A stretch of DNA of 64,000 nucleotides, taken from contig CAVVMW010000005.1 in the NCBI GenBank assembly GCA_963749495.1, forward strand, positions 320,001 to 384,000, in the 5' to 3' direction. Of this stretch, positions 2,484 to 11,154 are shown piece after piece. This DNA is from an uncultured bacterium. GTDB taxonomy: Bacteria; Verrucomicrobiota; Verrucomicrobiia; Limisphaerales; UBA8199. Within the stretch, counting starts at the first letter, position 1. Each line of letters opens with the position of its first letter. Made by a program: the position numbers and the translations under genes. The notes under the pieces are model-generated. The model worked only from the letters and a program-made list of their open reading frames with translations, did no database searches and was not told where the DNA came from.

Positions 2484-2558
2484 TGGCTGCCTCGCCTGGA
2501 ATTGCACCAGGTCCTTCGGTTTCAGAGACCGACGCGCTCCTGATTACACCACGAGGCC
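2484..2558 (-). tRNA. tRNA-Gln(CTG)
   Basis: Cloverleaf; anticodon arm TCGGT-CTCTGAA-ACCGA; T-loop TGCAATT; encoded CCA. Confidence 0.9.
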
Positions 2559-2627
2559 CGCCGTCGCGCTTTGCGCTAAGGCGCGGCAAGCGATTGGCCC
2601 GCCGAGCCGTAGCCGGCAGGCGAAGGC

Positions 2628-2701
2628 TGGTCGCTCGGGAAGGTCCTGCCCCTCCGATTTCTGGGTGTAGGCCAGACGTGATGCTATTTCACCACCGAGC
2701 C
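2628..2701 (-). tRNA. tRNA-Val(TAC)
   Basis: TCTGG-CCTACAC-CCAGA; T-loop GGCAGGA; ACCA end. Confidence 0.85.
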
Positions 2702-2811
2702 TTTCGAATGCGGAACTCGGAATGCGGAGTGCGGAGTGCCAAACGAGAACGAAGGCTGCTTGTGCGCGCGCCCCCATTCCGCACTCTGCATTCCCCACTC
2801 CGCACTGGGAA

Positions 2812-2885
2812 TGGCTGCCTCGCTTGGATTCGCACCAAGATCATCGGGGTCAAAGCCCGGCATGCTGCCGTTACACCACGAGGCA
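2812..2885 (-). tRNA. tRNA-Gln(TTG)
   Basis: Acceptor TGCCTCG/CGAGGCA; loop CTTTGAC; GCCA end. Confidence 0.92.
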
Positions 2886-2993
2886 AGGAATCGGCCTGCC
2901 AAGCCGTAGCCCGGCACGTCACAAATGCTCGCCTCCGCACTAGCGTGCTTCGGCGCAGCAGCCCTCGCCACCCGTCGCGCGTGTGGCGAAGGC

Positions 2994-3070
2994 TGGTGGA
3001 GCCGGAGGTAGTTGCAACCTCACCAAACCCGATTAAAAGTCGGGTGCCGGTCTGCTGTGGCTTCGGATCC
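2994..3070 (-). tRNA. tRNA-Lys(TTT)
   Basis: CCCGA-CTTTTAA-TCGGG; GAGGT-TGCAACT-ACCTC; ACCA end. Confidence 0.88.
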
Positions 3071-3077
3071 AGGAAAA

Positions 3078-3162
3078 TGGTGGGCGAGAGAGGATTTGCA
3101 CCTCCAAGGCTCACAGACTCTCGATCTGTGGGGTCTGCTAATTCCCTCTGAACCACTCGCCC
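3078..3162 (-). tRNA. tRNA-Leu(GAG), atypical fold
   Basis: Acceptor GGGCGAG/CTCGCCC; ACAGA-TCGAGAG-TCTGT; extra GGTTCAG before D arm; short variable region GAGCCTT. Confidence 0.85.
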
Positions 3163-3171
3163 AAAGAAAAG

Positions 3172-3247
3172 TGGTGCTCCCGGCCGGAATCTCACCGGCA
3201 ACCTCAGCCTTCGGAGGGCCGCGCTCTGGTAATTGAGCTACAGGAGC
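3172..3247 (-). tRNA. tRNA-Arg(CCG)
   Basis: CGGCC-CTCCGAA-GGCTG; T-loop TGAGATT; ACCA end. Confidence 0.9.
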
Positions 3248-3343
3248 AGTCCTAATGTGGAATTCGGAATGCGGAGTGCGGAATAAGAATGTGCACAGGG
3301 CTCTGCACACTCCGCATTCCGCACTCTACACTCACCACTTGAA

Positions 3344-3414
3344 GGGGTCTCCTGCCGGTGCTGCCCCGGCCTGGCTTGTTTACAAAACGAGCCTGCAGGC
3401 TGCCGCAAGGAGAC
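3344..3414 (-). tRNA. tRNA-Thr(TGT), short D arm, no intact encoded CCA
   Basis: Acceptor GTCTCCT/AGGAGAC; loop TTTGTAA; GCCGG-GGCAGCA-CCGGC. Confidence 0.7.
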
Positions 3415-3452
3415 GAGATGGCCTGCCGAGCCGTAGCGCTCGGCGCGAAGGT

Positions 3453-3527
3453 TGGTCGCAATCCCCAGTGCTGCCCTGGGCACGGCTGGCTTATGAAACC
3501 GGCCTGAGCGCTAGCCCTTTCAAGTGC
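3453..3527 (-). pseudogene. tRNA(CAT), Met/Ile2-like, 5' acceptor strand lost or degenerate
   Basis: Loop TTCATAA, CCCAG-GGCAGCA-CTGGG, ACCA end; 5' end runs into a heptamer repeat. Confidence 0.6.
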
Positions 3528-3612
3528 AAAGTGGAGAATGCAAAGTGCGGAATGCACCGGGCGCGGGCGTAGCGATGATAATTCTGCACTCCGAATTCCG
3601 CATTCTGCACTG

Positions 3613-3652
3613 ATGGCGGGTGGGTCTGCTCTTCCCCGTGAACCACGCGCCG
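3613..3652 (-). pseudogene. 5' half of a fifth atypical tRNA-Leu
   Basis: CGGCGCG-TGGTTCACGGGGAAGAGCAGACCC matches the 5' halves of the four atypical Leu tRNAs; 3' half replaced by heptamer repeats. Confidence 0.65.
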
Positions 3653-3658
3653 AGAAGA

Positions 3659-3769
3659 TGGCGTCCCTGACCGGCTTCGCTCCCGCCTTCGCTGGAAAGC
3701 TACGGCGGGGCAGGCCGGTGATCTCCTGCATGAGAGGCAGGCATTTTGTCTGGACTACACCACAGGGAC
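3659..3769 (-). tRNA. tRNA-Glu(CTC) with 33-nt palindromic insertion in T arm (3682-3714)
   Basis: Acceptor GTCCCTG/CAGGGAC; CCTGC-CTCTCAT-GCAGG; ACCGG[insert]AGCGAAG-CCGGT. Confidence 0.88.
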
Positions 3770-3775
3770 TGAAAA

Positions 3776-3852
3776 TGGTGAGGGCAGGAGGCTTCGCACC
3801 CCCAACCTGATGCATGTGACGCATCCGCTCTGGCTGGCTGAGCTATGCCCTC
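3776..3852 (-). tRNA. tRNA-Val(CAC)
   Basis: GATGC-GTCACAT-GCATC; T-loop TGCGAAG; ACCA end. Confidence 0.9.
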
Positions 3853-3888
3853 AAAATGGCTCGCCGAGACGTAGCTCCGAGCGAAGGC

Positions 3889-3964
3889 TGGTGGGGGACG
3901 AAGAGTGCTGCCCTCTTTGCCTCTCGGATGTCAGACGAGCGCTCTCCTGGTGAGCTACGTCCCC
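3889..3964 (-). tRNA. tRNA-Val(GAC)
   Basis: Loop CTGACAT; AAGAG-GGCAGCA-CTCTT; ACCA end. Confidence 0.85.
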
Positions 3965-3970
3965 AACAAA

Positions 3971-4020
3971 TGGAGCGGGTGGACGGAGTCGCACCGTCGA
4001 CTCGGCCTTGGCACGGCCCT
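3971..4020 (-). pseudogene. 3' half of tRNA-Gly(GCC)
   Basis: GGCC-GTGCCAA-GGCC, GACGG-TGCGACT-CCGTC, CACCCGC-TCCA; 5' half absent, GIY-YIG gene abuts. Confidence 0.75.
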
Positions 4021-4030
4021 TGGAGATAAA

Positions 4031-4297
4031 CTAGCTCCCCAGGCTCTCCGCTCCGCCCCAGAAGTGTCGTTTTGCGAAGGCATGGCCGGACCCGCTCTTC
4101 AGGTATTTCTCGAAGTGCTGGGCCTGTTCAAGGGACTCGAACGCAACGTACACCTTGAGCGTCCAAGGTATGAACTTGGACGTGTGCGGACATTTACCGG
4201 CGTTATGGTCTGCCACTCGTTGACGGAGGTCTGCCGTATGACCGATGTACCTCTGGTCGCGGTGGCTCAAGCTCTGGATGACGTATGTGTAAAACAT
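4031..4297 (-). CDS. Small GIY-YIG nuclease
   Basis: MFYTYVIQS...RYIGHTADLRQRVADHNAG...PW.L..Y..F...A..FEKYLKSGSGHAF. Confidence 0.92.
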   Translation of the reverse strand: MFYTYVIQSLSHRDQRYIGHTADLRQRVADHNAGKCPHTSKFIPWTLKVYVAFESLEQAQHFEKYLKSGSGHAFAKRHFWGGAESLGS

Positions 4298-4680
4298 ATT
4301 GCGGCCTGCCATCCATAGCTTGGAACCCGTTCCGTGGAAAGTCCTCCTTCGCCGAGCCTACGGAGGACATCCTCCGTTTGGCCCCCTCGCCTGGCTCGGG
4401 TTCCGAGCGGAGGATGGTGTCCCCAGCCGATTAAATCCAGAACGAAGAATGCAAAGTGCAGAACGCCCCACTCCCTCGCCATTGTCGAAAACCCAAATCC
4501 ATTTTGCATTCTTCATTCTGAATTCTTCATTTCAAAGGGCGGCCTGGATTGCGGGTCCGGTTCCGCTCGCTGGGAAAGGAGGCCGTTTCCTGCTGCTTGT
4601 GCCGCCAGCGCAGGAACTTCTGAAACCGGGCAAAATTCGTTCGGAGCGAATTTTGATAGGTTTTGTCCTCGAAGAACAAA

Positions 4681-4768
4681 TGGCGGAATGCCGTGGACTT
4701 GCACCACTTGCCTGGAGGCACGCACTCGTTAGCACCGAGGCCCGGTTCGCTTGCCCGGTTGGCATTCC
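4681..4768 (-). tRNA. tRNA-Ser(GCT) with 8/4 acceptor/T-stem fold
   Basis: 8-bp acceptor GGAATGCC/GGCATTCC, G73-CCA, 4-bp T stem GTGG/CCAC, long V arm TGCCT-CC-AGGCA, loop GTGCTAA. Confidence 0.88.
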
Positions 4769-4808
4769 AGAAATGGCCTGCCGAGCCGAAGCTCGACAGA
4801 GCGAAGGC

Positions 4809-4892
4809 TGGTCGGCGTGGGGAGACTTGCGCTCCCAAGGCTGTTCGGGTTTGAGCCGAACCGGTCTGCTATTCCCGGTAAACCACACGCCG
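4809..4892 (-). tRNA. tRNA-Leu(CAA), atypical fold
   Basis: TTCGG-CTCAAAC-CCGAA; extra GGTTTA before D arm; variable region CAGCCTT. Confidence 0.88.
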
Positions 4893-4924
4893 GCCCGCCG
4901 AGCCGTGGCCCGGGGAGCGAAGGT

Positions 4925-5010
4925 TGGTCGGCGCCCCGGGACTTGCACCCGGAAGGCTCAGCGATTTTAAGTCGCTGGGGTCTGCTGATTCCCGCTGAAG
5001 CCAGGCGCCG
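4925..5010 (-). tRNA. tRNA-Leu(TAA), atypical fold
   Basis: AGCGA-CTTAAAA-TCGCT; extra GGCTTCAG; variable region GAGCCTT. Confidence 0.88.
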
Positions 5011-5123
5011 AGAAAATGGCCTGCCGGGTCGGAGTTCGGAGCGAGGGTCGGATGCCCGCCTACGCCTCAAAGGCAGGCTTCGGCGAGACAGTCTTCGTTC
5101 TCCGCTGCGCTCCGAACGAAGAC

Positions 5124-5207
5124 TGGTGGGCATGGAGGGACTTGCACCCCCAAGGCTGCCAGATTCTGAATCTGGACCCTCTGCTATTCGGGTTGAACCA
5201 CATGCCC
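5124..5207 (-). tRNA. tRNA-Leu(CAG), atypical fold
   Basis: CCAGA-TTCAGAA-TCTGG; extra GGTTCA; D stem ACCC/GGGT; variable region CAGCCTT. Confidence 0.88.
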
Positions 5208-5216
5208 AGTTGAAAT

Positions 5217-5292
5217 TGGTGCTCCCGGCAGGACTCTCACCTGCAACCGGCGGTTCGAAGCCGCCCGCTCTGATATTTTGAGCTACGGGAGC
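5217..5292 (-). tRNA. tRNA-Arg(TCG)
   Basis: GGCGG-CTTCGAA-CCGCC; T-loop TGAGAGT; ACCA end. Confidence 0.92.
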
Positions 5293-5378
5293 CCTCCAAA
5301 TGCAGAGTGCGGGATGCAGAGTGCAGAATGACGCCCTTCCGTTCTGCGTCCCCCATTTTGGATTATTCAGTTGAAAAT

Positions 5379-5825
5379 TGGGGCCGGTGGGGAGACTCGC
5401 ACTCCCGTGGTAACTGTTCAGGTGTTGGACCAGTGCTGGCTTCGACGCCAGCGCCGGGCCCAGCCAAGCCGTTGTCCCGGAGGGACAACCCGAGAATAGC
5501 CCGGCGCTTCAGCGCCGGGTCCGACGCCCTAAAAACCCCGCGTCCCGACAGGGACGCCTGAGGCTCAGCACCGCAAGAGGCCAGCCGATTCAGCCGTCCC
5601 TCCGGGACGGGCGGGAGATTAGACCGCTTTCCCCGGCGCTGAAGCGCCGGGCTATTTTCGGGCTGTCCCTTCGGGACAACGACGGCCCTCGAACCAGAGC
5701 GCGTCCCGAGAGGCCCCGGCGGCGATGTGGCAACCCATGTGCCGAGACCTGAACAGTTACCTCCCGTGGGACGAATTGCCCGGCAGTTTACGAAACTGCT
5801 GCTGTCGCTGCTGAGCCACGCCGGC
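5379..5825 (-). pseudogene. tRNA with anticodon CGT (Thr) and long variable arm, interrupted by a MITE
   Basis: Removing 5410-5760 plus one duplication copy restores GCAGT-TTCGTAA-ACTGC, V arm GGGC-AATTC-GTCC, GGGAG-TGCGAGT-CTCCC, CCCA end. Confidence 0.85.
5410..5760. mobile_element. Non-autonomous IS66-like MITE (351 bp) carrying nested REP-like palindromes
   Basis: Terminal inverted repeats GTAACTGTTCAGGT...ACCTGAACAGTTAC; 8-bp duplication CTCCCGTG at 5402-5409 and 5761-5768. Confidence 0.88.
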
Positions 5826-5933
5826 CTCCGAAATGCGGAATGCAGAGTGCGGAGTGCGGGATTGCACAGAGCCGTCACAACAACGCTTGTGCTCCTCATT
5901 CCGCACTCAGCACTCCGAACTCCGCACTGAAAA

Positions 5934-6007
5934 TGGTGGGTCGCCACGGTGCTGCCCCGTGCTCTGCGGTTTAAGAGACCGCTGCATCGCTGCAATGCTT
6001 GCAACCC
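5934..6007 (-). tRNA. tRNA-Lys(CTT)
   Basis: GCGGT-CTCTTAA-ACCGC; T-loop GGCAGCA; ACCA end. Confidence 0.9.
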
Positions 6008-6010
6008 AAC

Positions 6011-6085
6011 CGCGACACGAAGGCGGAGTTGAACCGCCGCAGCCAGATCTGTGAAGTCCTGGCCGGCACCGGTGTTCGCGTCGCG
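6011..6085 (-). ncRNA. tRNA-like element with 11-bp closing stem and canonical T arm, no CCA
   Basis: CGCGACGCGAA/TTCGTGTCGCG; GGCGG-TTCAACT-CCGCC; GCCAGG...TCTGGC arm. Confidence 0.65.
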
Positions 6086-6090
6086 TGAAA

Positions 6091-6165
6091 TGGAATCCCG
6101 TGTGAGAGTCGCACTCACCTGCGCGGTTTTGCAGACCGCTGCCTGGGCTGCTCGGCCAACGGGAC
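6091..6165 (-). tRNA. tRNA-Cys(GCA)
   Basis: GCGGT-CTGCAAA-ACCGC; U73-CCA; T-loop TGCGACT. Confidence 0.92.
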
Positions 6166-6273
6166 ATCTGAATGCGGAGTGCGGAGTGCGGAGTGCAGAG
6201 TGCAGAGTGCGCAATGTCTGCGGTGCTGCCCCTCAGGCATTCCGCATTCTGCACTCCGCACTCAGCATTTGGT

Positions 6274-6700
6274 TCACGCTGCCCGCACAAAGTCCGAGAT
6301 GACGGCTGGAACGCTGGTGTCGAAACCAACCACGTCCAGCATCCCGCGGTCGTTCGGGTCGGCCAGGGTGAAGCCACTTAAATGAAGAGTTAAGAATGCA
6401 GAATGAAGAACGGAGGACGCCCTCAGCCGCCGTTGGTCTTGATTCCTCATTGTGCATTCTTCATTCTGCATTCATGTGGGCCCAGACCATCGGCAGCGAG
6501 CAATCCGTGCCGCCCATCGGGATCGCACGGACCTTCTCGATGACGCTTTCCAGGCGCATTCGGGGCGAGAGGGCGACCCGGGTAATGCCTGACTCACCGC
6601 CACCCCGCTGGCCGCCGTGACCGCTGGCGGCTGCGCTGAAGGCGATGATCTCGCACTCGGGGTCGGTTGCCGCCGTCACCAGGGCCATGGCGATGGACAA
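6274..6700 (-). pseudogene. TROVE/Ro60 (Rsr-like) protein, C-terminal vWA fragments only
   Basis: AMALVTAATDP...LSPRMRL...PMGGTDCSLPMVWA and GFTLADPNDRGMLDVVGFDTSVPAVISDF, separated by a heptamer hairpin. Confidence 0.88.
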
Positions 6701-6702
6701 GT

Positions 6703-6820
6703 GGCGCCGTAGGGTGGGGATCTCCTTACGGGAATCGAACCCGTCCGGAACTTGAATCCGGGCGCTCTCCCATGGCGAGCGTCCTCCCCGTGCTGGAGGA
6801 TGACCTGCGGACTTCGGCCC
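6703..6820 (-). ncRNA. Candidate Y RNA-like (YrlA-type) RNA
   Basis: Directly upstream of the TROVE remnant; ends GGGCCGAAG...CTACGGCGCC; inner GGTCATCCT/AGGAGATCC; canonical T arm ACGGG-TTCGATT-CCCGT. Confidence 0.6.
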
Positions 6821-6828
6821 ATGCGAAT

Positions 6829-6936
6829 TGGTCAGGAAGCCGGGATTCGCACCCGGACCGTCCGCTTCACAGGCGGAGATGCTGTCCACCCTCCGCAGTG
6901 CTGCTACGGAGGACGGGCTGTTACACCACAATCCTG
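6829..6936 (-). tRNA. tRNA-His(GTG) with 33-nt palindromic insertion in D loop (6885-6917)
   Basis: TCCGC-CTGTGAA-GCGGA; removing the insert gives D arm GGTGTAACAGCAGCATC. Confidence 0.85.
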
Positions 6937-6941
6937 GAAAA

Positions 6942-7019
6942 TGGTGCCCCCAGGTGGACTCGCACCACGATCCTCCTGCTTCGCGGGCAGGCGTGCACAT
7001 TCTCTTACACCTTGGGGGC
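6942..7019 (-). tRNA. tRNA-Arg(GCG)
   Basis: Acceptor GCCCCCA/TGGGGGC; CCTGC-CCGCGAA-GCAGG; ACCA end. Confidence 0.85.
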
Positions 7020-7110
7020 CTTGGAAGTGCGGATTTCGGAGTGCGGAGTGCGAAATGGCTGACGATTCCGGTGCGCCTCATTCCGCATTCCGCATTCTGC
7101 ACTCTGCACT

Positions 7111-7191
7111 TGGAGCGTCCGTGGCCGGACTTGCACCGGCTATGCCCGGCTTGAAGGGCCGGCTGCTCGAGCCTGCTTTGCATTCACGGAC
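7111..7191 (-). tRNA. tRNA-Glu(TTC)
   Basis: Acceptor GTCCGTG/CACGGAC; CCGGC-CCTTCAA-GCCGG; 3' end G-CTCCA (irregular). Confidence 0.82.
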
Positions 7192-7323
7192 AAATTGTTC
7201 ACCGTGGAAGGCTGGAACCACGGGGATTTCTGAACTCAGAATGGAGAATGAAGAGTGCAGAATGTCGAACCCTGCTGGCTCATTCTGCACTTTGCATTCC
7301 CCACTCTGCATTTGAGAGGCGCG

Positions 7324-8467
7324 CTAACGCCGGAGCGCGCGCGTCTTGTAGGTGAGGAGCGGCCGGAAGGTGGCGATAACCGAGATGAGTCCGGCGTCCG
7401 CCAGGTCCTGGACCACGTCCTCGATGCTCTTGTAGGCGGCTGGGGCCTCTTCGTAGAGCAACTCGCGCGGCTCGCAGATGACTTGGCCCCCCAGCGGCGT
7501 TTGGGTCAACTGCTGCCGGCCAAACCGTTCGCGCATGCGCAGGCGGCTCTCACTCCGGGCCCGACCTGCGGCCGGCACCGTGGGCCAAAGACCAGGCGTG
7601 GCTGACGCCATCTCCAATGGGCTTCACGAGGTAACTGAGCGACCCGCGGGAGCCAGGGATCATCACCGGCTCCCGTTCGGCTGCCACGGCACCCTTCCGA
7701 TGCACCCAGACCGCTTCGCCAGGGCTGCCCCTCACCCCGTCCCTCTCCCCATCGGATGGGGAGAGGGTGGCCGCAAGGCCGGGTGAGGGGACGCGAGCGA
7801 TGCTGTTGTGGCAGCCGTCCCAGAGGCACTCGGCCTCCGCTCCCAGCGCCTCGACGAATCGTCGAGCGATGAGCGCCCGGTTTGTCTTGGCCCACCTCAG
7901 GGCCAAGTCATGGTCGCGGAGATAGCCCGCCGCAGCAAACGACTCGGGATCGGAGCCTTCGGCCTGATGCTCTTCCGCGTACGCCCGCAGGACCGATTCG
8001 CCCAGACCGCGCGAGCCGCTGTGGACCAGAACCACCAGTTGCTGTTTGCCCAGGCCCAACCGCCTGAATGCTGCTGCGTCCAAGACGGCCTCGACCTTCT
8101 GCAGTTCGGCGAAGTGATTGGCGCCGCCGATGGTCCCCAGCGCTTCATCGAACTCCGTGGATTCAAGCTCCGCTACGGCGAGAACCTCGCCCACATCGCC
8201 TTCCCACGGATGCTCCAGGTCAAAGCGAAGGTCGGCCCACCCGCCTACGCGCTCCGCGCTCCGGCGCGGCAGGTCTGTCTTGAACAGGGCCGTGCCGCAA
8301 CCGATGTCGCCGCCGATGAGGTGGGGATAAATGACGCCCTTGGTGACGAGGGCGGCGCCCACCGGGCTGCCCTTGCCCGGGTGCAGGTCCGGGAAACCGA
8401 CCGCCAGGCGTACACTTTCGAGTCGTGCCGCCGCATAAAGCTGGCGAACCGCTTCGCCTTCGATCAT
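7324..8467 (-). CDS. rtcB: RtcB-family RNA ligase (PrfH-coupled RtcB2 type), frameshift near 7560, in-frame palindrome insertion
   Basis: PDLHPGKGSPVG, GDIGCG, LGTIGGANHFAE, VHSGSRG, HN, HRKGA, IPGSRG, SLAHGAGR, EEAPAAYK, LLTYK motifs. Confidence 0.93.
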
Positions 8468-8585
8468 CTGCCTGCCCTCCGCAAAATGTAGAATGAAGAA
8501 TGCAGAATGAAGAATGCCCCGGATCACGCACCGCAGGGCGCGGACGGAGATTCTGCATTCTCCATTCTGCACTCTGCATTTGAAC

Positions 8586-8692
8586 TGGCTGCCAGGGTTG
8601 GACTCGCACCCGCCGTCGCTCGGAGCTATGGCGGGGCAGGCCAACACCTAACGGCTTAACAGGCCGCCGTGCTGCTTTGACACAACCTGGCA
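8586..8692 (-). tRNA. tRNA-Asn(GTT) with 32-nt palindromic insertion in T arm (8609-8640)
   Basis: Acceptor TGCCAGG/CCTGGCA; GCGGC-CTGTTAA-GCCGT; GTTGG[insert]TGCGAGT-CCAAC. Confidence 0.88.
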
Positions 8693-8694
8693 AT

Positions 8695-8752
8695 TGGCGC
8701 TGCCGGCAGGAGTTGCACCCGCATGAGTTCGTTTAGAAGACGAATGCCCCTT
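8695..8752 (-). pseudogene. tRNA-Arg(TCT), 5' portion missing
   Basis: TTCGT-CTTCTAA-ACGAA; GCGGG-TGCAACT-CCTGC; GCCA end; 5' part replaced by heptamer repeats. Confidence 0.75.
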
Positions 8753-8859
8753 CCAAGTGCAGAGTGAAGAGTGCAGAGTGCGGAATGCCGCGGTCGGGAG
8801 CGAGTGGCTCCAGCCTCTGGCCATTCTGCATTCCGCACTCCGCACTCCGCATTCAAGAA

Positions 8860-8948
8860 TGGTGGGAGGTGCTGGTAACGCTCCAGTCGTCGCTTCCGAC
8901 AGTTGTTTTTGACGCCGGTTTTACGGACCGGCAGTCGGAACACCTCCC
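8860..8948 (-). tRNA. tRNA-Tyr(GTA)-like, 8/4 fold, no local D arm
   Basis: GGGAGGTG/CACCTCCC-ACCA; GCCGGT-CCGTAAA-ACCGGC; CTGG-AGCGTTA-CCAG. Confidence 0.78.
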
Positions 8949-9065
8949 GAGATTGGCTTGCCGCGCCGTAGCTCGAAGCCGCGCGAATGCACGCGGGCGG
9001 TACGGCCCGCCTTCGCTTCGCTACGGCGCGGCAGCCTCGCTCTCAGACTGGCTTCGAGCGGAGGC

Positions 9066-9138
9066 TGGTAGCGGGGGTGGGAGTCGCGCCCACGAAGGCT
9101 GAGGTTATGGGCCTCGCCTGAATCTCATTCTCCCCGCA
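9066..9138 (-). tRNA. tRNA(CAT), initiator-like, minimal D arm
   Basis: TGCGGGG/CCCCGCT with 1:72 mismatch; loop CCCATAA; GTGGG-CGCGACT-CCCAC; ACCA end. Confidence 0.78.
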
Positions 9139-9144
9139 GTGAAA

Positions 9145-9244
9145 TGGCGAACAAAGAACAAACACCTCTTGCTACCTTGCGGTACCAACCCACGGTTTCA
9201 CGGTGGTTCTTTCGGTGTTTGGGGGCACACCTCCTGCGAAGCCC
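9145..9244 (-). ncRNA. Structured RNA ending in CCA at the head of the array
   Basis: AAACACC/GGTGTTT stem enclosing two hairpins, one with a GCAA tetraloop (TACC-GCAA-GGTA); 3' end GCCA. Confidence 0.45.
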
Positions 9245-9444
9245 ATTTGAATGTAGAATGAAGAGTGTAGAGTGAAGAATGCCGCACGAGCGGCTCCGGC
9301 TCTTTCGACGGGGCGCCCATTCTGCGCTCTGCATTCTGCGCTCTGCATTCGATTATGGTGACATCATCAAGACGTCGGTTTCTTTTCGTTCACAGTGCTT
9401 TGCCTTTCGTTGTCGAGTTTTGCTTCTTTCAGTGCTGCACGGGT

Positions 9445-9481
9445 AAACAAAAAACCCTGCTTCCATTCCGGTAAGCAGGGT
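9445..9481 (-). terminator. Intrinsic terminator (attenuator) upstream of the tRNA array
   Basis: ACCCTGCTT-ACCGGAATGG-AAGCAGGGT followed by TTTTTGTTT. Confidence 0.9.
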
Positions 9482-9515
9482 GCAAAAAGTCTTTTGGTTC
9501 GGTTACCTGCTTACC
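9470..9515 (-). promoter_or_regulatory. Antiterminator pairing
   Basis: GGTAAGCAGG (9515-9506) is a perfect 10-nt complement of CCTGCTTACC (9479-9470) in the terminator 5' arm. Confidence 0.85.
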
Positions 9516-9673
9516 TTCAATCTATCCAGATTGGCTTCGGGGTTTTGTCCACGATACGCCCTGGATAGGCCGAGGCTGAACCAATAGCCTCGGCTGGACC
9601 AGCTATGACGTGTCGCCTGCGCGACCGACGTCATCGGCCAAATCGAGACTAATATGTTCATGCAAGTTTTCAT
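9503..9673 (-). CDS. Putative attenuator leader peptide (56 aa)
   Basis: MKTCMNILVSIWPMTSVAQATRHSWSSRGYWFSLGLSRAYRGQNPEANLDRLKVSR*, translated by hand; last codons overlap the antiterminator arm. Confidence 0.7.
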   Translation of the reverse strand: MKTCMNILVSIWPMTSVAQATRHSWSSRGYWFSLGLSRAYRGQNPEANLDRLKVSR

Positions 9674-9686
9674 CGAACTTGGTTCA

Positions 9687-9757
9687 TACTTATCACATGT
9701 CCCTAATCTTGTCCACTTATATCTTTAGGGTATCCTATATCTTAAATTCAAATATCT
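9687..9757 (-). promoter_or_regulatory. Putative sigma-70 promoter of the array with upstream repeated boxes
   Basis: TGGACA (9715-9710)-17 nt-TAAGTA (9692-9687) in an AT-rich patch; three AGATAT boxes at 9719-9724, 9737-9742, 9752-9757. Confidence 0.5.
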
Positions 9758-9787
9758 GGATAGGTTGATACATCGCTCCCCTCCGGT

Positions 9788-11154
9788 TCACCGGAGTTTA
9801 AGCAATCGCACCTCAAGCGGCGCAAGGGTGAGCGGAGCGTCCACCGGCCTGCCGGTCAGGACATCCTGCACCGCCATTGGCCGGCCGTCGCGCATCAGGA
9901 CTGCCGTCACCGGCTCCTTTCGGTAGTTGCAGAGATTCACCACGGTCCCTTGGGCTGTTTCGGTGCTCCGCCATTCCACGCCCCAAGCGGGCTGCCGCTC
10001 GGCCTCGCGCAGCTCCAGCGTGGGACGCAGGTCCCATGCGGGAAGCTTCGCCAGGATTTGTTCGTGCAGCTTCCGGGACGAAGTGGAACCGTGCCGGAAC
10101 GGGAGCTTGTCGGTGGCTGAGAGCTCGGGCCGTCTTTCGTGCCCATACTCATCCCGGCCCAGCACGTCGTCGTCGCCGACCAGCACCACACGCCCCTTGA
10201 ACTGCCGCAGTCCCGCCAAGGCTGCACCAGCGAGATGGACAACGCCGGGCACAAAAACCAATGGCGCCTGCGGGACGGAACCTGTCTCTGGATGATGTTC
10301 ACACCGTAGTCCGGCCACTTCTCCATGTCCGAGACGACCTGGCTGAAGTGCCCATAGCCGGTGAAGAAAACCGGACGCTCCTGCGGGACGCCACCCGGCA
10401 GGCAGGCCGGAGCCACAAAAGAACTGCGCCTGATGACAGGGCGCTGGTCGCCGGTCCAACGTGGCACGGCAGGGAACTGCCGCTGCCCGGCCAGGGCCTC
10501 TTTGAGTTCGCCACCCAAGCGCGATGCCATTCGTTCCAGGTCGCCGACCTGCTCGAGGGAACGGCGGACTTCTCCGTGGCGGGCGTCTTCCTCCGCATAG
10601 CCGATGAAGTTCTCCAGCACGGTGGCCGTGACTGCGGGATACGAGGGGTCCTGTCCGCGCGATTTGACCGCCTGCAAGTCCGCTTTCAGCGCGGGCAGGC
10701 TCGCCTTCAGGGCGCCTAACCGCTGGAGCGCGTTGGCGGCGGAGAAGAACCCTACGGGCGCGCTGGCGGCAGTGCTTTCCTGGTTCGCCTCCTCCAGGCG
10801 CAGCGTCAGCGCGCATCGCGCATCGCTGGCGGCTGCGCTTTCCCCTTTGACCAGCACCCGCCACACGCCCGCGGCGAGGCTAATGGTCTGGCGGACCGGT
10901 TCCCAGGAGCCCCATCCCGCAGAAAAAGCCCCGGTCACCGCGCGCGGGTTGCTCAACGTGAAAGCGACGCTAAACGGCCCATCGCCCTGGACCACGGTTT
11001 GCGCCTCTTCGGCTTCCAGAAACACCTTGTGACCGGTCGCGCACGCAGCGTCAGTATTGCGCCGGTCCCATCGCCAACCGGCCGGGAGGCCGGCGGAAGC
11101 GACTCGCTCGAAGCCCGAATTGGGAAGCAGGTTAGGCCGGCACTCGTGCTTCAA
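9788..11154 (-). pseudogene. Glycoside hydrolase-like protein fragments (GH42-like C-terminus), frameshifted and deleted
   Basis: LLPNSGFE (carbohydrate-binding start), RPVFFTGYGHF, WGVEWRS...VVNLCNY in different frames. Confidence 0.5.

Follow-up and report, generated by a model that had tools for sequence, protein, structure and literature searches.

How is a bank of spare tRNA genes, together with a linked RNA ligase, held silent and called upon? The question is raised by a locus on the reverse strand of the window, the 64,000-nt stretch of DNA analysed here, in which an array of tRNA and tRNA-like genes and a gene for RtcB lie downstream of a short ORF and an intrinsic terminator. To our knowledge, the control of a supernumerary tRNA array has been studied in Anabaena alone, and it points to a putative repressor. 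The L-array of Anabaena sp. PCC 7120 (the trn operon) is normally silent and is induced more than 100-fold by impaired translation (PMC8421152). In the available text of that paper, L-arrays are described as long, horizontally spread sets of supernumerary tRNA genes with HNH and rtcB, with Verrucomicrobia among the phyla that carry them, and the Anabaena array is taken to be controlled at 9-nt direct repeats that span the -10 box and start site, a putative repressor site (PMC8421152). The terms 'leader', 'attenuat' and 'terminator' are absent from this available text (Santamaria-Gomez et al. 2021, PMC8421152). For the locus in the window, comparison of homologous copies leads us to propose a different answer: the unit upstream of the array is probably a ribosome-mediated transcription attenuator with a leader peptide in which the full set of 20 amino acids is maintained, a reading to which we give a probability of about 0.68.

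The unit is about 330 nt long and consists of a putative promoter block, a 56-codon ORF, an antiterminator and a terminator, followed by the genes that it may control. The features are as follows.

9686..9769, reverse strand: conserved A+T-rich block, first bases ATCAACC (9769), a predicted promoter block based on the consensus of 125 units
Immediately upstream of the -35-like element, reverse strand: UP-element-like CTAAAGATATAAG
9715-9710, reverse strand: -35-like TGGACA (family consensus TTGACt)
9697-9694, reverse strand: TGTG motif in the promoter block
9692-9687, reverse strand: -10-like TAAGTA
9503..9673, reverse strand: leader ORF, with ATG at 9673-9671, 56 sense codons and TAA at 9505-9503
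9662..9667, reverse strand: ACTTGC (codons 3-4), candidate anti-antiterminator, can pair with GCAGGT (9510-9505)
9597..9639, reverse strand: hairpin H1 inside the ORF, a GTCGC-tetraloop-GCGAC core with an outer stem
9570..9593, reverse strand: hairpin H2 inside the ORF, CCGAGGC...GCCTCGG, with a loop that encodes conserved C/Y-V-F
9522..9568, reverse strand: hairpin H3 inside the ORF, CTATCCAG...CTGGATAG with an inner hairpin
9506..9515, reverse strand: putative antiterminator 5' strand GGTAAGCAGG, the last codons of the ORF, with the stop codon immediately after
9445..9481, reverse strand: predicted intrinsic terminator, with 5' arm ACCCTGCTTACC (9481-9470), 3' arm GGAAGCAGGG (9464-9455) and a T6 tract (9454-9449)
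2487..9357, reverse strand: downstream cargo in the window
From 9357 downward, reverse strand: heptad-repeat palindromic spacers
8647-7324, reverse strand: RtcB gene split over two frames (Pfam RtcB 2.8e-48 and 2e-10)
7019-2487, reverse strand: array of tRNA and tRNA-like genes, 13 hits at or above the Rfam gathering score and 2 just below
About 6706-6470, reverse strand: Ro60 vWA-domain fragment (Pfam 1.8e-13)

The peptide encoded by the window copy is MKTCMNILVSIWPMTSVAQATRHSWSSRGYWFSLGLSRAYRGQNPEANLDRLKVSR. Homology among the copies of the unit begins exactly at 9769, and the sequence farther upstream is unrelated. The assignment of 9686..9769 as a promoter and the transcription start are predictions from the family consensus, which would leave the ORF a 5' UTR of approximately 7 nt and thus a nearly leaderless transcript. 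No Shine-Dalgarno sequence was found at the leader ORF, and an SD-like 4-mer occurs in 4 of 115 copies among the matches listed. A simple scan for sigma-70 promoters and terminators missed both elements in the unit, the terminator because the loop and bulge of its hairpin lie outside the scan rules. Small shares of sequence words, 4-6%, were found in 24 sequencing runs from 18 studies, and four runs examined more closely contained contigs of relatives, 80-95% alike; the RNA-library contigs indicate presence only. Several contigs stop at 9677-9682, near the predicted start. As others continue into the promoter block and loose ends occur, these contigs fix neither a 5' end nor a 3' end, nor a level of expression. 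One contig of 1202 nt in a relative links the leader to about 900 nt of downstream sequence.

The genome that contains the window has five copies of the unit, all of which are upstream of and co-oriented with tRNA arrays. Of 61 related genomes, 28 gave a match to the unit, and a pattern scan identified at least 116 further loci (three of them false hits) in records whose titles mostly name Verrucomicrobiota. The carriers are a group of soil and wetland bacteria. When a peptide profile was run against 400 further genomes from the phylum, two of which belong to the same order, with 16 first-look candidates scored for each, no match appeared beyond the window's own genome; a pattern scan of viral contigs gave no exact match. 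Among the matches listed, co-oriented tRNAs lie downstream of the unit in 50 of the 60 loci with at least 1.5 kb of downstream sequence, and a tRNA lies upstream in 5 of the 74 loci with at least 1.5 kb of upstream sequence. Of the five arrays in the window's genome, four contain RtcB and three end distally in an HNH gene, and one leader in a relative precedes an intact RtcB alone. These associations link the unit to tRNA arrays and to RtcB. ARAGORN identified 126 tRNAs in the window's genome, with up to 18 in one array. The array tRNAs score 31-61 bits, versus 72.7 for a lone tRNA of a relative. Acido-Lenti-1 matches were also present among the Rfam hits. Two features of L-arrays are found here, a long array of supernumerary tRNA genes apart from the housekeeping set and linked HNH and rtcB genes, by criteria other than the array-length cut-offs of the Anabaena paper.

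Is the short ORF translated, or is its open frame incidental to a structured RNA? Among the matches listed, 119 of 125 unique copies keep the frame of the ORF open, versus 1 of 125 for each other frame. The ORF has 17 different lengths (138-207 nt), and in 117 of the 125 listed copies the length is a multiple of three; about seven listed copies have a broken frame (L051, L056, L079, L085, L088, L104 and L118). The leader ATG is conserved across the copies, and the stop lies at most one codon beyond the antiterminator strand, with a spacing of 0 or 3 nt in almost every copy. This indicates that the leader ORF is under selection to stay open and is probably translated. The same observations, together with insertions and deletions in multiples of three, argue against a structured non-coding leader or sRNA that would act as a riboswitch, in the manner of a T-box or by binding a protein. 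Such an RNA would agree with the codon-position entropies of the leader (0.66, 0.68 and 0.80), as nucleotides at codon positions 1 and 2 are conserved about as strongly as those at position 3.

The same entropies bear on the possibility that the product of the ORF is a functional small basic protein, such as a factor with tRNAs or ribosomes as its target. The terminator would then be constitutive, its complementarity to the ORF would have no regulatory role, and expression of the array would depend on read-through or on other promoters. Numerous public assemblies annotate the conserved ORF as a gene (147 cluster representatives), as expected of such a protein, and leader RNA is found in the RNA-library contigs mentioned above; the leader peptide peTrpL is reported to act in trans. 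However, third codon positions are barely freer than first and second positions; the peptide itself is only weakly constrained, and a leader peptide fits better than a working protein. Pfam has no match to the leader peptide, and, as shown below, residues change position in the peptide and are conserved only in being present. Conserved partner strands and a stop fixed beside the antiterminator are likewise unexpected in an ordinary small gene. We therefore regard a working protein as a very improbable explanation of the ORF.

The property that sets the leader apart is its composition. The initial annotation had pointed out that the ORF at 9673-9503 contains all 20 amino acids and 39 distinct codons within 56 codons, with five different leucine codons (TTA, CTC, CTA, CTG and TTG) as well as ATA, CGA, AGA, AGG, ACA and GTA, and our recount agrees with each of these observations. 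As a property of this single ORF, the supposed rarity disappears: stop-free shuffles of its own bases contain all 20 amino acids in 9.4% of cases and at least 39 codons in 27%. Its apparent rarity, at about 1% of the 56-codon windows of the 64,000-nt stretch, is due to locally low G+C. The family of leaders gives a different picture. Among the matches listed, 98 of 117 leader peptides (84%) contain the complete set of 20 amino acids, 16 peptides contain 19 and 3 contain 18, so that 19 of the 117 lack one or two amino acids. Complete sets are found in 8.7% of nucleotide shuffles, 1.6% of 56-aa windows of long ORFs, 4.6% of draws from the family's own composition and less than 1% of peptides from each of the other two frames. 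The confinement of completeness to the frame of the ORF is a further point against a non-coding RNA.

Shared ancestry alone does not reproduce this completeness at realistic divergence. In tree-aware simulations with rates of 1, 2 and 4, which correspond to realistic divergence, none of the 400 runs per rate reached 98 complete peptides, whereas at a rate of 0.25 (very low divergence) 13% of runs reached 98/117 through inheritance alone. Permutation within alignment columns gave on average 32/117 complete peptides and never more than 46 over 2000 runs, versus 98 observed. Among 91 cluster representatives, which were chosen independently of the DNA search pattern, 56 contain all 20 amino acids and 85 contain at least 19. 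Individual residues illustrate how the set is kept. Where tryptophan is absent from its main column it is found elsewhere in 24 of 24 peptides, versus an extra tryptophan in 19 of 93 peptides that keep it there. The corresponding counts are 22/23 versus 31/94 for histidine, 14/18 versus 7/99 for aspartate and 72/77 versus 5/40 for tyrosine. Amino-acid copy numbers in the leaders are strongly under-dispersed, with rare residues at about one copy each. Taken together, these comparisons of sequences indicate that the presence of all 20 amino acids is maintained by selection in the leader family. Runs of any one amino acid, the classical sign of regulatory codons, are absent from the leaders.

Codon usage extends this pattern. 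The leaders contain on average 40.9 distinct codons, versus 38.8 expected from uniform synonymous choice and 35.5 from genome usage, so the high codon diversity suspected for the single ORF is borne out across its homologues. The genome-rare codons TTA, CTA, AGA, AGG, ATA and GTA are enriched in the leaders, and the arrays hold tRNAs for several of them (anticodons TAA, TCT, CCT and TAT). Full amino-acid cover by the arrays examined with ARAGORN was not visible; 16 amino acids were seen over these arrays.

Composition also bears on what the leader senses. A leader of the same architecture could be tuned to ribosome-targeting antibiotics or other translation inhibitors through particular stall sites, as in PA5471.1, ermL-type leaders and toiL. 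It would then monitor neither tRNA nor amino-acid supply, and its all-20 composition would be a side effect. A complete amino-acid set is needless for such a sensor, yet it is maintained by the relocation of W, H, D and Y, and codon diversity exceeds even uniform synonymous usage. The best-conserved stretch of the leader peptide is its N-terminal MKTCMNI, which speaks for this alternative, and there are precedents. In the available text of a review, the PA5471.1 leader before armZ, an RtcB-like gene of P. aeruginosa, is proposed as a leader-peptide attenuator that responds to antibiotics and is released by stalling, for which the review calls for confirmation (PMC12057347). As in our unit, a leader peptide and downstream terminators are proposed to release an RtcB-family gene upon ribosome stalling; unlike in our unit, there is no tRNA array or described completeness, and the likeness is drawn from the published description. 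The toiL uORF of E. coli topAI-yjhQ, as far as described in the available text, answers at least five antibiotic classes through different stall positions; it acts by making a ribosome-binding site accessible and by averting Rho-dependent termination (PMC12121999). One uORF thus serves many translation stresses, as we envisage here, but our unit has an intrinsic terminator, and toiL senses antibiotics, not tRNA supply, and controls a toxin-antitoxin pair. The Anabaena L-array, too, is induced by ribosome-targeting antibiotics of whatever class (PMC8421152). A sensor devoted to antibiotics seems to us unlikely. The two kinds of signal are compatible, since the switch would respond to slowed elongation whatever its cause.

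What would connect the leader peptide to transcription is a pair of alternative RNA structures. The terminator hairpin (-16.6 kcal/mol, followed by the T6 tract) is 97.6% paired in 116 copies among the matches listed (helix 14). Within its 5' arm, CCTGCTTACC (9479-9470) is the exact complement of GGTAAGCAGG (9515-9506), and the perfect 10-nt complementarity seen in the initial annotation is thus confirmed. In the same 116 copies, among the matches listed, 96.2% of cells in this antiterminator are paired. Its two variable inner positions show only A>G changes that keep G-U pairs (0/116 unpaired), and both partner strands of the shared segment show only G-U-compatible changes. All 24 copies found by BLAST share an identical terminator 5' arm; among the 116 copies the search pattern itself required this arm to be invariant, and it also partly fixed the antiterminator core. 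True compensatory changes in the antiterminator are absent among the 116 copies except at the outermost pair, because the core is invariant. Conservation extends to both alternative pairings. The alignment of homologues proposed in the initial annotation therefore supports the conserved ORF and the overlap of its stop with the antiterminator, while the expected covariation was not found beyond that outermost pair. The proposed geometry of attenuation, with a conserved ORF, a stop abutting the antiterminator and a competing terminator ahead of tRNA arrays and RtcB, recurs in the family.

Folding models place a constraint on how such a switch could work. The antiterminator is the predicted fold of a transcript that ends before the terminator 3' arm. 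For the full RNA the folding energy is -96.3 kcal/mol, versus -92.5 with the antiterminator forced, and equilibrium folding favoured the terminator in every state modelled, including a ribosome stalled mid-ORF and represented by a masked footprint. The switch would therefore have to be kinetic. Thermodynamics alone was ruled out as a model of the switch, as masked-footprint folding never produced the antiterminator. Single-copy residues are found in the last six codons in only 7 of 656 cases; a ribosome stalled there would itself mask the antiterminator.

The ORF also contains RNA structure of its own. Both sides change at 9 of 15 pairs in H1 (helices 6-8), 5 of 7 in H2 (helix 10), whose loop sequence is conserved, and 7 of 7 in H3 (helix 11). 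These internal helices were derived from 68 indel-free rows, and RNAalifold on the gapped 116-row alignment gave the terminator only. The three covarying hairpins are RNA-level constraints beyond what the simple model needs, and they could sense on their own. Together with the stability of the leader RNA relative to shuffles (z = -5.2), the changes on both sides of H2 and H3 and the conserved H2 loop are what a non-coding regulatory RNA would lead one to expect. The region 9440-9790, however, has no match to any Rfam family, T-box included, even at E <= 1, and with the open frame described above we judge it highly improbable that this RNA is non-coding. The ACTTGC:GCAGGT pairing (helix 4) comes from the consensus fold of the 68 indel-free copies; in 116 listed copies 95% of its cells are paired, and its changes are one-sided U-G/C-G only. 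Its 6 bp, closing a domain of about 150 nt, are a faint hint that ACTTGC may serve as an anti-antiterminator.

We infer the switch kinetics, the direction of regulation and the natural signal as follows. A strong conserved promoter would produce the nearly leaderless transcript, and a ribosome would translate the 56-codon leader while RNA polymerase advances. If the ribosome reaches the stop in time, it would cover GGTAAGCAGG, the terminator would form, and transcription would end before the tRNA array and RtcB. If it is delayed at any upstream codon, by a missing charged tRNA or another cause, GGTAAGCAGG would be free to pair with the newly made terminator 5' arm, and polymerase would continue past the terminator to transcribe the spare tRNAs and the ligase gene. 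The antiterminator outcome would be reached by kinetic trapping. With one or a few codons per amino acid, many of them rare, the leader would report on the whole decoding apparatus. A further step is to see the unit as a general alarm for tRNA integrity, in which the loss, cleavage or lack of charging of any tRNA species would switch on the spare tRNA bank and RtcB. This would apply the principle of the trp attenuator, with close to exactly one codon each for Trp, Asp, Tyr, Phe and His, and it could be useful, for example, against anticodon nucleases. We consider the chances of this broader interpretation to be about even.

The proposed attenuator shares its logic with known leaders and differs from each of them. 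The enterobacterial leaders trpL, hisL, leuL, thrL, ilvL and pheL have 14-32 codons with runs of one to three regulatory amino acids, and leaders of the trpL type control the synthesis of the same amino acids that they sense. They have in common with our unit a short 5' ORF, an intrinsic terminator, an antiterminator that depends on ribosome position, and termination when translation reaches the stop. In contrast, the leader described here has approximately 56 codons, contains no runs and keeps every amino acid, and it would control tRNA genes and an RNA ligase. Furthermore, it is predicted to be nearly leaderless, it lacks a Shine-Dalgarno sequence, and it carries three covarying hairpins inside its ORF. 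A T-box riboswitch lacks an ORF and recognises a single uncharged tRNA species by direct binding. There, as would be the case here, tRNA charging decides between terminator and antiterminator, but our unit has an ORF and no T-box match. The Anabaena L-array is also a spare tRNA array with linked HNH and rtcB, and it is for Anabaena only that induction by translational stress is known. Unlike in Anabaena, a cis-acting leader ORF and terminator would here sense the ribosome directly.

In the literature that we searched, we found no description of a leader attenuator with all 20 amino acids. If our reading is correct, leader-peptide attenuation would be used to gauge overall decoding capacity instead of the supply of one amino acid, and RtcB would be tied directly to the speed of the ribosome. 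The one-of-each composition would also offer a tool, as a leader that has lost one codon should fail to respond to the corresponding amino acid alone. Transfer RNA L-arrays could then sense translational stress without a protein regulator, and the unit may provide a simple, protein-free mechanism for the control of tRNA arrays in widespread soil and wetland Verrucomicrobiota.

The leader unit lies on the minus strand, upstream of the tRNA array, and its parts are as follows.

Leader locus in the window
~9788, minus strand: end of the upstream gene (sequence inspection)
Between ~9788 and the leader ORF, minus strand: A+T-rich stretch (sequence inspection)
9673..9503, minus strand: leader ORF, 56 sense codons, then TAA
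9481-9445, minus strand: terminator (hairpin and T tract), 3' of the leader ORF

The initial annotation had described this ORF as an all-20-amino-acid leader peptide coupled to an attenuator. A recount confirmed its anatomy: 20 of 20 amino acids, 39 different codons, five leucines encoded by TTA, CTC, CTA, CTG and TTG, and every rare codon that had been named. The ten bases preceding the TAA, GGTAAGCAGG (9515-9506), are perfectly complementary to CCTGCTTACC (9479-9470) in the terminator 5' arm. The rarity argued from this one ORF did not survive comparison with stop-free shuffles of its own bases: all 20 amino acids turn up in 9.4% of these and at least 39 codons in 27%. Its apparent rarity (~1%) comes solely from comparison with the G+C-rich background of the window, since the leader itself has a higher local A+T content. 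The single-sequence argument therefore falls.

The unit recurs in related genomes. In its own assembly, BLAST with positions 9790-9440 found five copies at 69-100% identity, whose homology sets in abruptly at 9769 and ends just beyond the T tract. A leader match was found in 28 of 61 genomes (60 sampled relatives and the window's own): 21 of 36 were positive within the family, as were 6 of 24 belonging to other families of the order. Scanning one genome per species for an exact pattern (antiterminator core, terminator 5' arm, and 3' arm with T tract) yielded at least 116 loci; three pattern matches (L025, L114 and L133) were false. Among the matches listed, 80 rows carry titles: 66 have a Verrucomicrobiota-lineage name (including Limisphaerales, 'subdivision 3' and Pedosphaera), 11 have other names and three read 'bacterium' alone. 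As all titled rows but one are metagenome bins, mislabelling is likely. Searched with a peptide profile, 400 other genomes across the phylum (two of them of the same order) gave no match beyond the window's own genome; among the genomes searched, the unit therefore seems confined to this order. Viral contigs gave zero exact matches to the antiterminator/terminator pattern.

All five copies in the own genome lie upstream of tRNA arrays and are co-oriented with them. Among the matches listed, co-oriented tRNAs follow in 50 of the 60 loci with at least 1.5 kb downstream, at a median distance of 508 nt from the terminator, while any tRNA occurs upstream in 5 of the 74 loci with at least 1.5 kb on that side.

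Aligning the homologues bore out a conserved short ORF. Its ATG-to-stop frame is open in 119 of 125 unique units with aligned ends, versus one of 125 for each of the other two frames, and its length is divisible by three in 117 of 125 despite 17 different lengths (138-207 nt). In 24 copies found by BLAST, free of the scan pattern, the ORF has 49-58 codons, always starts with ATG and ends at the antiterminator strand or one codon beyond. The frame is broken in about seven copies (L051, L056, L079, L085, L088, L104 and L118), and contig ends cut two others. Third codon positions are only slightly more variable (entropy 0.80) than first (0.66) and second (0.68) positions. This comparative evidence indicates that the leader ORF is translated, and it indicates that the peptide sequence per se is weakly constrained, with frame, composition and RNA being kept.

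Completeness for all 20 amino acids was assessed in 117 clean peptides from the 125 units among the matches listed; eight units were dropped for a length that is not a multiple of three, an ORF-end mismatch or the lack of a start within eight codons. All 20 amino acids are present in 98 peptides, 19 in 16 and 18 in three. The corresponding all-20 share is 8.7% in nucleotide shuffles, less than 1% in the other two frames, 1.6% in 56-residue windows from long ORFs and 4.6% in random draws from the family's pooled composition. Shuffling columns among sequences, which keeps positional conservation, gave a mean of 32 of 117 and a maximum of 46 in 2000 runs. In tree simulations with site-specific frequencies, 98 was reached in 0 of 400 runs at each of rates 1, 2 and 4, in 1.75% of runs at rate 0.5 and in 13% at rate 0.25. 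These two lowest rates produce sequences far more similar to each other than the real leaders; pairwise column identity falls from 0.74 at rate 1 to 0.66 at rate 4, versus 0.63 observed. The excess of complete peptides arises because residues lost from their main column relocate to other positions.

Occurrence of a residue elsewhere in the peptide, when absent from its main column and when kept there (related sequences, not independent events)
W: absent, 24/24; kept, 19/93
H: absent, 22/23; kept, 31/94
D: absent, 14/18; kept, 7/99
Y: absent, 72/77; kept, 5/40
E: absent, 37/40; kept, 31/77
Q: absent, 56/58; kept, 39/59

By eye, the relocations use several distinct target positions in different clades. 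Residue copy numbers are strongly under-dispersed, with tryptophan at 0, 1, 2 and 3 or more copies in 0, 95, 19 and 3 peptides, counts that again come from related sequences. As an independent check, free of the DNA pattern, 1.84 billion cluster representatives (at most 50% mutual identity) were searched with a profile, which gave 147 matches. The 91 full-profile representatives that end at the protein end contain all 20 amino acids in 56 cases, 19 in 29, 18 in five and 17 in one. We infer from these comparisons that the presence of all 20 amino acids is kept by selection.

The high codon diversity that had been claimed holds across homologues. Leaders use on average 40.9 different codons, versus 38.8 for a uniform synonymous draw and 35.5 for genome usage, and 83% and 97% of them, respectively, exceed these expectations, although conserved positions make the codon counts non-independent. 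Leaders make frequent use of codons that the genome seldom uses, and the array tRNAs include the anticodons TAA, TCT, CCT and TAT.

Share of genome-rare codons within their synonymous family
TTA: leaders 0.15, genome 0.01
CTA: leaders 0.18, genome 0.02
AGA: leaders 0.16, genome 0.03
AGG: leaders 0.28, genome 0.07
ATA: leaders 0.43, genome 0.11
GTA: leaders 0.28, genome 0.09

Next, we focus on the RNA switch. In an alignment of 116 copies, from which nine broken or aberrant units were excluded, pairing reaches 97.6% in the terminator and 96.2% in the antiterminator (GGTAAGCAGG with CCTGCTTACC). The segment common to both is invariant, which is partly imposed by the scan pattern; the same segments are also invariant in the 24 pattern-free copies. 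Frequent changes in the partner strands are solely A to G, retaining G-U pairs, and neither of the two variable inner antiterminator positions is unpaired in any of the 116 copies. True compensatory change affects the outermost pair only (9 cells).

The two structures are nearly equal in stability (terminator -16.6 versus antiterminator -15.2 kcal/mol). In the folding model, a transcript cut before the terminator 3' arm adopts the antiterminator, and at equilibrium the full RNA favours the terminator in every state modelled; hence the switch has to operate kinetically, like that of classical attenuators. Judging by standard footprint sizes, a ribosome whose A site holds the stop codon would shield GGTAAGCAGG and leave the terminator arm, 23 nt beyond, uncovered. 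A ribosome stalled in the last six codons would mask the antiterminator by its own presence, and single-copy residues are scarce there (7 of 656). This scarcity is a weak point, because pairing also constrains the region. ACTTGC (codons 3-4) pairs with GCAGGT, together with 4 bp flanking start and stop; this pairing, 95% paired with one-sided changes only, is a candidate anti-antiterminator for when no ribosome is loaded. The leader RNA is unusually stable (z = -5.2) and, within the ORF, forms three hairpins that show genuine covariation, with two-sided changes in 5 of 7 pairs of H2 (9570-9593, minus strand) and 7 of 7 of H3 (9522-9568, minus strand). Polymerase pausing, ribosome pacing or another role are candidates for these hairpins.

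The block upstream of the ORF has the consensus TTGACt-N17/18-TGnTAtaCG, preceded by an A+T-rich UP-like element and another conserved block. It is probably a sigma-70-type promoter, which would place the start about 7 nt ahead of the ATG. A Shine-Dalgarno-like 4-mer is present in 4 of 115 leaders versus 34 of 197 long ORFs, a crude control. In four metatranscriptome runs, contigs of relatives (80-95% alike) span the leader, and one of 1202 nt joins it to about 900 nt downstream; the promoter block is also covered, and such libraries may contain DNA. The contigs indicate presence only, not transcript ends or levels. The conserved block beyond the putative -35 (9716-9769, minus strand) contains AGATAT twice, 15 nt apart, and its family consensus holds the palindrome ATCCGGAT. 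By analogy with the proposal for the Anabaena array, this region could serve as operator in an additional, protein-based layer of control.

The array downstream of the putative switch has the following features.

Features of the array in the window
9357 down to 2699, both arms, minus-strand array: palindromic heptad-repeat spacers, twelve to sixteen copies between tRNA units
8647-7324, minus strand: split RtcB gene (Pfam 2.8e-48 and 2e-10, two frames)
7019-2487, minus strand: tRNA genes (Rfam, 13 at or above the gathering score and two just below)
~6470-6706, minus strand: Ro60 vWA domain fragment (PF25045, 1.8e-13), inside the array among tRNA-like genes
5632-5678, plus strand, and 5473-5519, minus strand: Acido-Lenti-1 motif matches (Rfam, 44.7 and 38.3 bits; gathering score 37)

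The array tRNAs are divergent, scoring 31-61 bits in Rfam (window 2487-7019 and loci L141-L144, L150 and L152) whereas a relative's lone tRNA scores 72.7, and the T loops of several array tRNAs deviate from the usual GGTTCGAATCC. ARAGORN finds five tRNAs in the window, missing over half of Rfam's. The spacers consist of 7-nt repeats of the GAGTGCG/GAATGCA type, complemented some tens of bases later, and begin about 90 nt past the leader terminator; they would fold as long transcript hairpins and may be processing sites. The Acido-Lenti-1 pair sits inside the array of a genome with Verrucomicrobiota-labelled relatives.

RtcB occurs in four of the five own-genome arrays, and an HNH endonuclease lies at the distal end of three. 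One ORF of the window's RtcB matches the Pfam profile as far as position 354 and the following ORF matches 351-425; the gene also bears an apparent short repeat-derived insertion. It represents a pseudogene or else an error of assembly. RtcB is intact (376-408 aa) in other own-genome arrays and in a relative. The Ro60 fragment appears to be left over from a Ro60 gene of the type described in Ro60/Y-RNA/RtcB repair loci. In one relative whose chromosome is complete (G460), two leaders precede arrays of 13-15 tRNAs (ARAGORN), and a third (L151:102-2327) has no tRNA genes behind it but an intact RtcB of 408 aa about 760 nt downstream. The association of the leader is therefore not with tRNAs alone. 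In another own-genome copy (contig C4, L144:11635-13944), a transposase (PF21804, 7.6e-79) is inserted between leader and tRNA array, and the terminator has a degenerate 3' arm and T tract.

Long tRNA 'L-arrays' with linked HNH and rtcB genes were defined by Santamaria-Gomez et al. 2021, with Verrucomicrobia among the phyla listed (PMC8421152). In Anabaena, ribosome-targeting antibiotics raise expression of the array more than 100-fold, and its control was ascribed to direct repeats over the -10 box as the site for a hypothetical repressor; that paper does not contain the words 'leader', 'attenuat' or 'terminator' (PMC8421152). In P. aeruginosa, the leader peptide PA5471.1 precedes the RtcB-like armZ, and attenuation upon ribosome stalling has been proposed (PMC12057347). 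The toiL uORF senses several antibiotic classes via Rho-dependent termination (PMC12121999). Full-text literature, with most subscription journals outside its scope, yielded no account of tRNA arrays preceded by a leader peptide or an attenuator, nor of a leader complete for all amino acids.

The central idea of the initial annotation, an all-20 leader coupled to an attenuator that stands ahead of spare tRNAs and RNA repair genes, thus has strong comparative support. We classify the unit as probable leader-peptide attenuation with a new sensing logic and a new target class: the principle would be the same, but sensing would be by completeness instead of runs, and the targets would be tRNA arrays and RtcB. 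Candidate signals to which such a leader may respond are tRNA damage, starvation or inhibitors.
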